64,000 nucleotides of DNA, from assembly GCA_963706595.1 (NCBI GenBank), contig OY970166.1:1376001-1440000 (forward strand), written 5' to 3'. The position numbers were made by a program, and so were the translations under genes. The notes under the pieces are model-generated. The model was not told the DNA's origin, searched no databases, and worked only from the letters and a program-made list of their open reading frames with translations. Shown here piece after piece: positions 39,698 to 48,311 of the stretch. Origin of the DNA: an uncultured cyanobacterium (GTDB lineage: Bacteria; Cyanobacteriota; Cyanobacteriia; Cyanobacteriales; Nostocaceae). The first letter of the stretch is position 1. Every line of letters begins with the position of its first letter.

Positions 39698-40060
39698 ATG
39701 AGAGGTGTTTTTTTAACGCAGAGGTACGCTGAGTTGTTTACTAGTGCTATGGATTTGGTGAGTAATTCCGTATTTTCATCATGACTTTAATTAATCTTTA
39801 ATTTATCTACCAGTAATTACAGATAAGATATCTGGAACAAGATGTAATTGCCTAGTTAAATTTACTCTGTTTAAAATGTGGCACGTATTAGCATCTGAAC
39901 TCTCTGCGCTTGGTGCGTGAGCAAAATTCCTATTCTCAATCAGCAACATCGGATAATTTATTGCTTGGTATTCCCCTCAGAATGAATCCTGCAAATTTTG
40001 CTGATAGTCTGGGCAATTTATGTATCAACATATATAGCAAAATTCACAGAGCAACATAAT

Positions 40061-40630
40061 ATGAAGAATGCTTGGTGGTATCAAATTTCAACAATTAACC
40101 TAGCTTTGATAGCAGTAATTCCGACGCTGGTATTTTCAGCATTCTCTTACCAAGCCATGGCTGAAGATCCAGGATTATGTTTTATGATTACCTCTTCTGG
40201 CAGAATGGTGCGCTTGGGGAAGCTTTGCGGTGTAACGAAGACACCTCTCCCCAAGAATAACAGCAAAATTTTTCGGGTTCCCATCAAACGCCGCCTGGGT
40301 AGAACTCCTGTGATTGATGTCACCTTCAATCACAACAACACTTTTGAAATGATTGTAGATACTGGCGCTCATGGTACTCTAATTACTGCCAAAATGGCCA
40401 ATACTCTGCAACTCCAGGCTACAGGAATTATGCAAGCTCAAATTGCGGATGGGACTCAAGTCCTATTTCCCACTGGTAAGGTAAATTCTGTGGCTGCGGG
40501 TGGAGTTGTGGCTAATAATCTAGAAGTGGCGATTGCCCCAAAAGCCGGGGTAGGATTACTAGGACATGATTTCTTTGGCAACTACGACATCAAAATTCGC
40601 GAAAAAGACGTAGAGTTTTACTCCCGCTAA
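40061..40630 (+). CDS. Retropepsin-like aspartic protease, exported
   Basis: Signal peptide, C.M....G....L..LC motif, MIVDTGA, GLLGHDFF. Confidence 0.88.
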   Translation: MKNAWWYQISTINLALIAVIPTLVFSAFSYQAMAEDPGLCFMITSSGRMVRLGKLCGVTKTPLPKNNSKIFRVPIKRRLGRTPVIDVTFNHNNTFEMIVDTGAHGTLITAKMANTLQLQATGIMQAQIADGTQVLFPTGKVNSVAAGGVVANNLEVAIAPKAGVGLLGHDFFGNYDIKIREKDVEFYSR

Positions 40631-40875
40631 TCCTAATTTAGAATTTTAACTCCCATCTGTACTTTGCACTTTACATATATAAAAGCCATTATTTAACAGA
40701 CTTAAAATATTCTTCAAACCAGACAATAATCACTATTATAGGTCTTTTTAAAACTAGTTTTGTCCTTGACTTTCTTGAATTGCCTGAATAAAAATAGCAG
40801 TAACAGTTAAGCGAAGCGAGCTTAATTGTTAATCAACTAAATCTATTAGCAATCAATGCTTGAGGAGCAAATATT

Positions 40876-41109
40876 ATGGCAAATATCACTCTTTCTGAAC
40901 TCAACAATGCTGGTGCAGAATTATTTCAAGATTCTGAAAGTTTCTTGAATGAATTGAAAGATGTGGATGCTATCTCCGGTGGCAGCAGCTACAATCAAGG
41001 CTATGTCAGCGATATGTCCACATTGACTAAGTTGGCTGAGGCGTTTGTGACAACTTATGCTATTGGTCATGTGACTGTCCTAGCTAAGTCATTCAGCTAT
41101 GGATACTAA
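40876..41109 (+). CDS. Double-glycine leader peptide precursor, copy 1
   Basis: RBS GAGGAG; 36-aa leader ...ELFQDSESFLNEL...ISGG; 41-aa core. Confidence 0.8.
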   Translation: MANITLSELNNAGAELFQDSESFLNELKDVDAISGGSSYNQGYVSDMSTLTKLAEAFVTTYAIGHVTVLAKSFSYGY

Positions 41110-41267
41110 TAGCTGTAATCGCTTCATTTAACTAGTATTTCTGCACGATAATCAATTGATTTTGTGCTGTACTAGATGGCTGTTCAGGGATTAAATTTAC
41201 TAACAATAATCCCTGAAAGCTAGTCAGGTTGAAAATTATCACAACAAATGCTTGAGGAGCAAATATT

Positions 41268-41504
41268 ATGGCTAACATCATTCTTTCTGAACTCAACAAT
41301 GCTGGTGTTGAATTATTTCAAGATTCTGAAAGTTTTCTGAATGAATTGAAAGATGTCGATTCCATCTCCGGCGGCAGCACCGACGTATACGCTGGCTATG
41401 TAAGCGATCTGTCCACATTGACAAAGTTGGCTGAGGCATTTGTGACAACTTATGCTATTGGTCACGTGACTGTCCTAGCCAAGTCATTCAGCTATGGATA
41501 CTAA
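41268..41504 (+). CDS. Double-glycine leader peptide precursor, copy 2
   Basis: Same RBS and leader; 42-aa core. Confidence 0.8.
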   Translation: MANIILSELNNAGVELFQDSESFLNELKDVDSISGGSTDVYAGYVSDLSTLTKLAEAFVTTYAIGHVTVLAKSFSYGY

Positions 41505-41621
41505 TGGCTTTAATCGCTTCATTTAACTGATAGCTTTTCAGGGATGAGATTTACTCGCAATCATCCCTGAGAGCTAATCAAATTGAACATTGTCGTCACA
41601 AATGCTTGAGGAGCAAATATT

Positions 41622-41858
41622 ATGGCAAACATCACTCTTTCTGAACTAAATAATGCTGGTGCTGAATTATTTCAAGATTCTGAAAGTTTCTTGAATGAAT
41701 TGAAAGATGTAGATTCCATCTCCGGTGGTAGCACCGACACCTACGGCGGCTATGTCAGCGATATTTCTACATTGACTAAGTTGGCTGAGGCATTTGTCAC
41801 AGTTTATGCAATTGGTCATGTTACCTACTTAGCCAAATCATTTAGTTCTGGATACTAA
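41622..41858 (+). CDS. Double-glycine leader peptide precursor, copy 3
   Basis: Same RBS and leader; 42-aa core. Confidence 0.8.
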   Translation: MANITLSELNNAGAELFQDSESFLNELKDVDSISGGSTDTYGGYVSDISTLTKLAEAFVTVYAIGHVTYLAKSFSSGY

Positions 41859-41973
41859 TGGCTTTAATCGCTTTATTTAACTGATAACTTTTCAGGGATG
41901 CTCCCCTCACAATCATCCCTGAAAGCCAGTCAAGTTGAAAACTATCATCACAAGCACTTGAGGAGCAAATATT

Positions 41974-42204
41974 ATGGCAAACATCACTCTTTCTGAACTA
42001 AACAATGCTGGTGTGGAATTATTTCAAGATTCTGAAAGTTTTCTGAATGAATTGAAAAATGTAGATTCCATCTCCGGTGGTAGCACCCATCAACCCTATG
42101 TCAGCGATATGTCCTTCCTGACTAAGCTGGCTGAGGCGTTTGTCTTCACTTACTCCATTGGTCATGTTACCTACTTAGCCAAGTCAGTTAGTTCTGGATA
42201 CTAA
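41974..42204 (+). CDS. Double-glycine leader peptide precursor, copy 4
   Basis: Same RBS and leader; 40-aa core. Confidence 0.8.
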   Translation: MANITLSELNNAGVELFQDSESFLNELKNVDSISGGSTHQPYVSDMSFLTKLAEAFVFTYSIGHVTYLAKSVSSGY

Positions 42205-42221: not shown

Positions 42222-42254
42222 AGATCCCCGACTTCTTAAAGAAGTCGGGGATCT
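42222..42254. repeat. 33-bp dispersed palindrome, copy 4 (probable terminator of the peptide array)
   Basis: agatccccgacttcttaaagaagtcggggatct. Confidence 0.8.
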
Positions 42255-43477: not shown

Positions 43478-43560
43478 CGCAAAGGCGCAAAGGCGCAAAG
43501 GTAAGAAGGTAAGAAGGTAAGAAGGTAAGAAGGTAAGAAGGTAAGAAGGGAAGAAGGTAA
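43478..43560. repeat. Octamer tandem repeats (CGCAAAGG) x3 then (GTAAGAAG) x~7
   Basis: Directly visible. Confidence 0.85.
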
Positions 43561-43656
43561 TTGTGACCAATACTTCCTTAGTGGTACAAGCCCCCAGATT
43601 TATCTGTGGAATCAATCCAAAATCCGAAATCCAAAATCCAAAATTGTATGACGGCT

Positions 43657-46266: not shown

Positions 46267-47286
46267 ATGATGTTGGGAAATTTTAAGAGAGCTAAATTGA
46301 TATTTTTAGCTGTTTTAAGCAGTTTATTAGTGAGTGTTAGCGCTTTTGCCCAAATACCCCGGATACCCCAAAATACTCAACTGGTAAAATCACAAGTTAC
46401 TATCACACAGTTAAGAAATGCAACAACTAAATTAAACCAGCTAGAAACTGCATTAAACCAAGTAGAACGCAAAAAAGTAGCTACTCTCAAAGACACTGAA
46501 CAAGTTGAAGAAGCAGCATTTGCTTATGCAGAAGCCATAAAAGCCGGCTTAGATAATGCTTTAAAAGAAGCCGAAACTTTAGCCAAAACCGAAGGCAAAC
46601 AAGGCAGTATTAATTCTTTGGTGACATTTGAAAAAGCCGAAAAAGAGAATCAGCCCCGGTTAGAAAAAATTGAACAAAGGGCGAACACGATTGAGAGACA
46701 AATCAAAGTAGGAACTATCAGACTTGATAAATCGATTATCCAAAATTTATCAGTTCCAGAACGCCAGGAGTTATTGGAATCCTTAGAACCACCAGCAAAA
46801 CAGATTTATCTGCGAGAACAACCAGCATTATTCAAACCTGTTCTGGAATTACAAATCAATAACCCTAATTTACAAACACCTCGAATTAACCCTAATTTAC
46901 AAACACCTCAAATTAACCCTAGTTTACAAATACCTCGAAACAATCTGAAATTCCTCGAAGAGAAGTTTGATAAATTCCAAAGCTTTGTCCCCGGAAATCT
47001 AGAGAATACATTAGCTAACTATCATGTTGGCATGGCAGTTTCTGGGATGATGCAAAGCATCAGCAATATGTTAATCCCTCCCGCTTATGCAGCCGCAGCA
47101 ATCCCCTGTATTGGTTACGCCGTTGCCGGCAAATGGAGTGGTTTAGCAGCTTGTGTAGTGAAGGCAGGTTCACAAGCCACAAGCATATATAATGATTTTG
47201 TCAGATGTTGGAATAACGCCAAGCGTCCTTTCCGTTGGCTAAAAAGAACCCGTTGCGTAGCGAGATTAATCGTCAGGATTGCTTAG
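46267..47286 (+). CDS. Secreted hypothetical protein: coiled coil, 9-aa repeats, cationic 4-Cys C-terminal domain
   Basis: Signal peptide ...VSAFA; 27-bp x3 repeat at 46861-46941. Confidence 0.75.
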   Translation: MMLGNFKRAKLIFLAVLSSLLVSVSAFAQIPRIPQNTQLVKSQVTITQLRNATTKLNQLETALNQVERKKVATLKDTEQVEEAAFAYAEAIKAGLDNALKEAETLAKTEGKQGSINSLVTFEKAEKENQPRLEKIEQRANTIERQIKVGTIRLDKSIIQNLSVPERQELLESLEPPAKQIYLREQPALFKPVLELQINNPNLQTPRINPNLQTPQINPSLQIPRNNLKFLEEKFDKFQSFVPGNLENTLANYHVGMAVSGMMQSISNMLIPPAYAAAAIPCIGYAVAGKWSGLAACVVKAGSQATSIYNDFVRCWNNAKRPFRWLKRTRCVARLIVRIA

Positions 47287-47476
47287 GTTAAACCTTTTAA
47301 TAATTTAACTGTAGGGTGTGTTATCGCGTCAGCGTAACGCACCTTATTTTTGGAAACCGAATTCATTTTATTGACAAATTTACTCACTAAATGGAGTTTT
47401 TTGAAAAACCCAAAAACATTTTTGTTCAAAATCTGCATATAATGAGCAAATTCCACCTATTGATTAACTGAAGGCA

Positions 47477-47502
47477 TTAAAATTCGCCTGCACAAACTTG
47501 AC
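47477..47502 (+). promoter_or_regulatory. 26-bp motif shared with 46138-46163
   Basis: TTAAAATTCGCCTGCACAAACTTGAC (24/26 identical). Confidence 0.55.
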
Positions 47503-47519
47503 CACAAGGAAAAAGAGAG

Positions 47520-48311
47520 ATGTTTCACCTACCATTTAAATCTTTAACTCTGGGTAGCATGGTAATCCTGTCTACTGCAACTACCGTTTTAGCCCAAGTA
47601 CAAGTAAGCCCACTAATCGCCCAAAGAACGAACTTTAGTTGTGGCCCTCATACAAGTACTTACGTAGTGGGAATATCAGATAATCTTGAAGTATCTGGTA
47701 TTCGCTGCGTCACCTTCAGTCAAGGTAAACCAGGAAGTACAATTCCCCGACTAGCATGGTACGGCGAAGGGAGTTGGGGTGGTTCAACTTATCGCCATGT
47801 AGGACAAGCTTTTTACAGAGGTTCTAACCTGGTTGGTTATGCTTCTGATATTCATGGTAACGGCGAAAGTTACAACAATGATTTTGGTAACGGCGATCTG
47901 AATATCGAAATTGTCAACAGATCAACTATTCGGATTACTGGTGCATGGAATGAAGAATGGAAATTAGTCTCAGCCGCTAATTACACACCATTACCCAAAG
48001 CGGAAACTTGCGGTACATATTTCGATGAATACACAGTTTCTGAACCCAATGGTAATAGTCAAGGTAATGGCTTACGTTGTGTGCTGCGGGTTGGTAGGAG
48101 AAATACTACTTGGTTTGGTAATGGTAATTGGGGAAATTCTACTTATTCCCATCTGGGAACCCGTTCTTTTAATGGTTACGGTGCGAATGATATTTGTGGC
48201 GATGGTTTCGGATCATTTTGTAATACCTTTGACTACGGTTCTGTGAAATTAAGTCCTGTAACTGGCGGATTTAATGTTACAGGTGCTTGGAATGAAAAGT
48301 GGCGACGATAG
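47520..48311 (+). CDS. Secreted hypothetical protein built from two ~115-aa Cys/Trp/Gly-rich repeats
   Basis: Signal peptide ...TVLA; duplicated CG...Y.V, G.RCV, W.G.G.WG.STY.H.G, TGAWNE.W. Confidence 0.8.
   Translation: MFHLPFKSLTLGSMVILSTATTVLAQVQVSPLIAQRTNFSCGPHTSTYVVGISDNLEVSGIRCVTFSQGKPGSTIPRLAWYGEGSWGGSTYRHVGQAFYRGSNLVGYASDIHGNGESYNNDFGNGDLNIEIVNRSTIRITGAWNEEWKLVSAANYTPLPKAETCGTYFDEYTVSEPNGNSQGNGLRCVLRVGRRNTTWFGNGNWGNSTYSHLGTRSFNGYGANDICGDGFGSFCNTFDYGSVKLSPVTGGFNVTGAWNEKWRR

Follow-up and report, generated by a model that had tools for sequence, protein, structure and literature searches.

The window, by which we mean the whole 64,000-nucleotide stretch of DNA that was analysed (G000:C1:1376001-1440000), carries a tandem array of four short precursor genes, with a repeat unit every 352-392 nt (Table 1). 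Open reading frames bore out the preliminary description of four genes encoding 76-78 residues behind a common ribosome-binding site, and an identical 20-nt string containing this site precedes all four. The leader reported as near-invariant is 36 residues long, ends in ISGG and varies at four positions among the copies. The cores had been called variable; this holds for their first 5-7 residues, which are hypervariable, but the term was overstated for peptides that are 82-90% identical in pairwise comparison. As also reported, none of the four cores contains cysteine.

Table 1. Positions of the precursor genes and of predicted regulatory and repeat elements in the window
Feature	Position	Strand	Description
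Candidate regulator-binding site	40721..40745	+	AGAC-N17-GTCT palindrome; common to parent array and single copy
Predicted promoter	40766..40795	+	sigma-70-like, TTGACT ... TAAAAAT; from consensus scan, TTGA and TAAAA invariant in alignment
Predicted 5′-UTR hairpin	40801..40831	+	fold z -2.35; stretch conserved across loci
Precursor 1	40876..41109	+	77 aa, 36-aa leader and 41-aa core
Spacer hairpin 1	41177..41222	+	part of repeated unit; spacer fold z -4.1
Precursor 2	41268..41504	+	78 aa, core 42 aa
Spacer hairpin 2	41528..41580	+	spacer fold z -3.2
Precursor 3	41622..41858	+	78 aa, core 42 aa
Spacer hairpin 3	41889..41925	+	spacer fold z -3.3
Precursor 4	41974..42204	+	76 aa, core 40 aa
Perfect 16-bp inverted repeat	42222..42254	.	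between array and converging oxidoreductase-like gene; terminator-like

The first spacer hairpin may act as an mRNA-stability element. The 16-bp inverted repeat is also present upstream of the larger paralogous array described below, and is therefore read as a dispersed repeat. Elsewhere in the window, a tandem 8-nt repeat (AAGGTAAG) lies at 43482-43568 between oxidoreductase-like and DUF1822 genes, and two open reading frames of 339 and 263 aa at 46267-48311 begin with signal-peptide-like sequence and matched no Pfam model above cut-off. We do not regard the aspartic protease gene upstream of the array (39998-40630) as a partner, because it flanks only some of the loci of this type.

Of 470 candidates, 466 proved to be relatives of the window peptides at E<=0.001, and those named among the best 120 matches are 'hypothetical' proteins of Nostocales. 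Among the four window copies, dN/dS was 0.07 for the leader and 0.15 for the predicted core helix. The many relatives and the low dN/dS place the array far beyond chance, and the four genes are real and under selection. Pfam, NCBIfam, PHROGs and PDB sequences name no family for the precursors. Models for CTB family bacteriocins, NHLP and Nif11 gave no NCBIfam match at E<=1, and the one Pfam match (E 0.11) was spurious; similarity to the CTB cluster of the ESM Atlas was only 0.81. An AlphaFold2 model of precursor 3 from a 32-row alignment had helices at residues 6-32 and 48-73 at low confidence, and its pLDDT of 57.6 made it too weak for a fold search. In one metatranscriptome (word share 0.04), five of six short contigs were placed on the genes or spacers without a silent-stretch control; as these contigs are of low depth and mostly derive from relatives, they were not counted as evidence.

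Segment lengths and dN/dS across the family were obtained from 128 of 181 genes that could be parsed, leaving out 53. All 128 encode a leader of 36-38 aa, a linker of 7-23 aa rich in Ser, Gly, Tyr and Asp, which evolves by insertions and deletions, and a helix of 25 aa. Among 29 genes from detached arrays like that of the window, hereafter satellites, dN/dS was 0.10 for both leader and helix, calculated over pairs that are not independent. The array had been proposed to belong to a diversifying family; its helix is instead under purifying selection and fixed in length, and the alignments indicate that a single hydrophobic helix has been maintained in the family while its dose was multiplied, the active part not diversifying. 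A likeness to pilins or coat proteins, also suggested, gained no support: none of 32 members matched PHROGs, no PDB match fell under E 0.37, and there was no Pfam pilin match.

Residue conservation was scored at 70 loci with a single precursor per locus, and K-S-[FY] served as the anchor for 66 of these sequences. Of the 66, 64 retain Lys at -20 and Glu at -17, and all have Ser at +2; the four unanchored sequences also have S-F-S. A C-terminal S-x-S, which in window gene 4 is S-V-S, occurs at 70/70 loci and is the only invariant Ser/Thr site. The other Ser/Thr positions of the helix are 32-68% conserved, with few in distant subfamilies, so heavy dehydration is not what has been conserved. Core net charge is 0 to -1. 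Cysteine occurs in two of 181 precursors, both times within the leader, and in no core.

Ten paralogs, the last one strongly diverged, lie at C1:3295664-3299881, 1.9 Mb from the window on the same contig. A single copy at C1:5213382 brings the family to 15 genes genome-wide. Identity to the window peptides is 54-81%, as measured for six genes of the larger array and the single copy. Directly behind the ten paralogs and on the same strand are genes for an APH kinase (PF01636; 81.7 bits with the LxmK model NF038156, below its cut-off of 315) and then for a HopA1-domain protein (PF17914, 203 bits), the putative lyase. Facing this pair are genes for a PPIase, HlyD and a 1016-aa cNMP-C39-ABC transporter. 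We call this locus the parent cluster; it also holds two genes that we take to encode an M16 peptidase pair. The statement that C39 transporters, HlyD and RiPP-modifying enzymes are absent was correct for the window, where the kinase, lyase, HlyD and C39 sequences of this genome, used as tblastn queries, gave two ATPase-domain matches only (~215-230 aa, 28-30%), but a modifying pair adjoins the ten paralogs elsewhere. The idea that the GG-leader peptides are served in trans fits the genome, which encodes five C39 domains, one of them in the paralog cluster with Cys and His intact.

For both the kinase and the lyase 43 orthologs were found, and 33 and 31 of them, respectively, were aligned. Lyase residues R206, K237, R247 and Y254 are invariant in 31/31 sequences, and kinase residues K53, H217-D219-K221-N224 and D250 in 33/33. 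The four lyase residues align with those of the lexapeptide lyase chain (PDB 9dk1), and their spacing matches R187/K219/R229/Y236 of CaoY as given in the accessible text of PMC9486802. According to the accessible parts of the respective reports, kinase/lyase pairs of this kind dehydrate Ser/Thr in cacaoidin (PMC9486802) and lexapeptide (PMC12141560), and distant cyanobacterial homologs have been noted (PMC7794033). No cyclase, reductase or decarboxylase was seen by eye among the ORFs between lyase and PPIase at the 43 loci, from which linear dehydro-peptide products would follow. The parent cluster also has UbiA and HAD genes; we do not take them for tailoring enzymes, as they are present at 0/74 related loci.

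Several further genes lie in or near the parent cluster. Two diverged single-copy genes with leaders lie at conserved positions on either side of the parent array (C1:3299618-3299881 and 3294779-3295087), the upstream one with its own AGAC-N17-GTCT site; these may be second components or regulators. In 21 of 43 parent clusters, the gene after the lyase belongs to the HetP family (NF037966); it is missing from the parent cluster of this genome, in which HetP-like genes are found at C1:3249145 and C1:3644760. A lasso-peptide-like set (PqqD, transglutaminase-like B2, HPr kinase-like, nucleotidyltransferase, ABC) lies upstream of the parent cluster at C1:3282180-3289938, and two further C39/HlyD loci with other small GG-type genes nearby are at C1:1103295-1110934 and 1908088-1914441.

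The 190 nt upstream of the first gene are homologous at the window, parent and single-copy loci. They contain, in this order, AGAC-N17-GTCT, about 22 nt, TTGA(C/T)T, TAAAA and a conserved UTR, and AGAC and GTCT are invariant in 14/14 aligned upstream regions. The strict full pattern has three sites in the 5.57-Mb genome, exactly at the three precursor loci, and a looser pattern has 11, one of them before a 102-aa leader-like gene upstream of the parent array. As the pattern was derived from these loci, an independent test at other loci was needed. The palindrome with a downstream TTG preceded the first detected precursor at 45 of 59 related loci, compared with 147 of 5000 random windows, and at 34 of 48 when the 11 derivation loci were removed. 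A further AGAC-N17-GTCT followed by TTGA, at C1:2397803, is intergenic and unlinked to any precursor, and may be due to chance. A candidate for the protein that binds the palindrome is the 210-aa product of an IS630-like HTH gene (C1:3311850-3312482), whose place at the end of the parent cluster is conserved.

At the threshold used, precursors were detected in 76 of 151 genomes of the taxonomic family and in 49 of 251 of the order. We compared 74 family loci, drawn from the best 80 of 170 confirmed stretches. Kinase and lyase genes lie within 10 kb at 43 of these, 30 of which also have a C39 gene within the flank that was compared. Flanking genes of the window type occur at 15 loci, with the kinase at none of them; six loci have a single copy, and another ten fit no class, several of these being cut by contig ends. 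The window-type loci carry 1-5 copies and come from Nodularia, Anabaenopsis, Umezakia, Chrysosporum, Cyanocohniella, two 'Anabaena' CCY strains and LEGE 11386. At a separate locus (L059:8948-9964) two family precursors are inverted, face to face, and no enzymes were detected around them.

A tree of 122 coding sequences places 29 of the 30 satellite genes in a single clade (99/92). This clade is joined (96/91) by five single copies and by three genes that stand first in parent arrays. We infer the direction from parent to satellite rather than reading it from this tree, since the bootstrap had not converged (0.981), the root was placed at the midpoint and one satellite gene falls outside the satellite clade. 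Duplication of the promoter and first gene, followed by local tandem expansion, would be the simplest reading of these sequences.

A second kinase/HopA1 pair, with no precursor adjoining, is encoded at C1:5461062-5463424. Its lyase has Gln or Glu in place of the catalytic Lys in 13/13 copies examined, and for this reason is likely not a dehydratase. This second type of pair probably accounts for the HopA1 genes found in 150 of the 151 genomes of the taxonomic family. Because their presence is thus uninformative, we used copy number and the orthologous lyase instead. At least two HopA1 genes were found in 76/76 genomes with precursors and in 38/75 without, counts to which no p-value is attached because related genomes are not independent. 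The orthologous lyase (>=80%) is encoded in 11 of 12 close genomes. In the exception, the draft genome G279, which has satellites, no orthologous kinase or lyase was found, and both cluster flanks end near contig ends; this genome encodes another kinase/lyase pair, in which the catalytic Lys is present.

By sequence comparison, the window family appears to be the same as Family 1A of Eyles et al. (2021), described in the accessible text as 570 peptides in 183 cyanobacterial clusters (PMC8153245), and as group II of Wang et al. (2011). The preliminary description had left room for a match to an already characterised family; the family is catalogued (PMC8153245), but its product is not characterised. 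Shared with Family 1A are the cyanobacterial host, the leader and GG motif, tandem non-identical copies and the kinase/HopA1 pair. The Eyles 2021 dataset contains DSESFLNEL 69 times and the helix motif KLAEA 64 times; the 30 rows seen with the latter are network 1 entries throughout, the Nodularia spumigena parent array among them. The 40% cut-off of that network is exceeded by the 54-81% identity to parent-array peptides, whose counterparts are network 1 rows. For the satellite subclade, two satellite-typical leader words gave no matches in the table. The window locus differs in having no HopA1 gene beside it, the pair adjoining instead the ten paralogs that share its promoter. Moreover, Family 1A C-termini are described, in the accessible text of PMC8153245, as highly variable and lacking conserved Ser/Thr, whereas the window subfamily has the fixed 25-aa helix and the invariant S-x-S.

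The parent cluster resembles group II in having a long-type C39 ABC transporter, HlyD, a SurA-like PPIase, a putative M16 peptidase pair and an APH domain around GG precursors; it differs from group II in that this genome's copy lacks the HetP-like gene, and the window locus consists of precursors only. The accessible part of Wang, Fewer and Sivonen (2011, PMC3140520) assigns an APH domain to group II clusters and lists asl1933 among their precursors, at 77 aa. Four proteins of strain PCC 7120, BAB73632-35 (77, 77, 77 and 81 aa), are divergent family members and, from their lengths and order, would correspond to asl1933-1936; asl1936 is given as 81 aa in the accessible text of PMC2823733. Class V lanthipeptides (cacaoidin CaoK/CaoY, lexapeptide LxmK/LxmY, pristinin A3) have a homologous kinase and HopA1-type lyase whose catalytic residues are kept here, available to the window peptides in trans only. 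They differ from the present system, in which the leader is another one and ends in GG, export would be by C39, no decarboxylase or reductase was seen in the cluster, and the cores have no Cys for lanthionine or AviCys. A literature search, covering titles, abstract openings and few subscription journals, found no report of the product of a kinase/HopA1 cluster of the Family 1A type.

Taken together, these comparisons make it on balance probable that the window genes are a copy, detached and expanded, of the parent cluster's first gene and promoter, and that their products are co-expressed with that cluster, dehydrated, cut after GG and exported. The shared promoter would bring about co-expression. 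The parent-cluster kinase and lyase would then act in trans, guided by the leader, with phosphorylation followed by elimination at some Ser/Thr residues, most plausibly at the invariant C-terminal S-x-S. Cleavage after GG and export would be carried out by the parent-cluster C39/HlyD, yielding neutral, hydrophobic, helical peptides of ~41 residues made in bulk. Export taken alone seems likely; the whole chain of co-expression, dehydration, cleavage and export is put forward with moderate confidence. As no core contains Cys, the window peptides are not lanthipeptides.

As to function, we tentatively favour a bulk cell-surface or matrix peptide over an antagonist or a signal, although without holding it to be probable outright. 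In its favour are the gain in copy number (15 genes), the fixed helix, a core net charge of 0 to -1, and the lack of any recurrent candidate for an immunity ORF when the stretch between lyase and PPIase was read by eye at the 43 loci. These last two features count directly against membrane-active, bacteriocin-like antagonists, modified or not, whose variable linker would tune the target, as do the weak amphipathicity of the helix (moment 0.05-0.12), purifying rather than diversifying selection, and the near-identity of copies within genomes. We regard such a role as rather unlikely, although a GG leader, C39/HlyD export and a hydrophobic helix make up standard bacteriocin anatomy (accessible text of PMC3140520), one ESM Atlas neighbour cluster is automatically named 'putative Bacteriocin', and the diverged single-copy paralog immediately ahead of the kinase might provide a second component. 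As this alternative is about function, it does not conflict with the processing route that we prefer.

A different alternative does concern processing: the peptides would be cleaved after GG and exported in trans either unmodified or only phosphorylated, and serve as self-assembling surface or biofilm subunits like EbfG of Synechococcus elongatus, with the kinase/lyase pair acting on another target in the parent cluster. EbfG1-4 are likewise encoded by tandem small GG-leader genes and exported by a C39 transporter, PteB; they are needed for biofilm (PMC4997328) and EbfG1-3 form amyloid (10.1101/2022.07.13.498973), according to the accessible parts of these sources, which provides a precedent for a non-antibiotic matrix role. 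In the window family, the hydrophobic pattern and the Lys, Glu and Tyr positions are better conserved than most Ser/Thr, and the near-universal second HopA1 gene, with its catalytic Lys replaced in 13/13 copies, indicates that not every pair dehydrates. The parent-cluster lyase, however, retains all catalytic residues in 31/31 orthologs, and in the conserved cluster its gene follows directly on the precursors, in the same orientation. Identity between Asl1933-1936 and EbfG1-4 is only 9-17% (PMC12267927, Table S5), and the accessible text describes no kinase or lyase for the EbfG system. We therefore consider absence of dehydration unlikely, and retain dehydration in trans as the preferred route.

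Developmental or density signals linked to heterocyst biology are less likely still. The HetP-family gene behind the lyase in 21/43 clusters, the long, HetC-like domain order of the exporter and the inclusion of asl1933 in a heterocyst-former core set (PMC4365693) would agree with such a role. The same report, in its accessible text, gives asl1933 as not expressed after nitrogen step-down, which bears on the present family through the putative membership of asl1933. No TCCGGA or GTA-N8-TAC site was found upstream of any of the three loci, half of the genomes in the taxonomic family have no precursors at the threshold used (76/151 have them), and tenfold gene amplification would be unusual for a signal. 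Very improbable, in our view, is a Cys-free use of class V lanthipeptide chemistry to make an extracellular, covalently cross-linked polymer, in which dehydroalanine formed from the invariant C-terminal Ser is linked through lysinoalanine to the invariant Lys of neighbouring helices, its subunits coming from three dispersed loci under one dedicated operator and displaying variable Gly/Ser/Tyr arms at the surface. That the satellite is a non-functional by-product of duplication can be given hardly any credence: dN/dS is about 0.1 in 29 satellite genes, and several named genera have retained its promoter, RBS and position.

The window array is thus a detached member of a catalogued family and not a new kind of system, nor is it a lanthipeptide, pilin or coat protein. 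New relative to that catalogue are the tie between satellite and parent cluster at the level of the promoter, the invariance of S-x-S, and a second lyase, present family-wide, without catalytic Lys. Precursors of this family also lie at distant satellite loci, where they are overlooked by neighbourhood mining. The conserved operator-promoter would define a small regulon and offers a reporter for inducing conditions, and S-x-S, being conserved, is the likely site of modification. As the model strain PCC 7120 carries members of the family (BAB73632-35), the product and its function are directly testable there.
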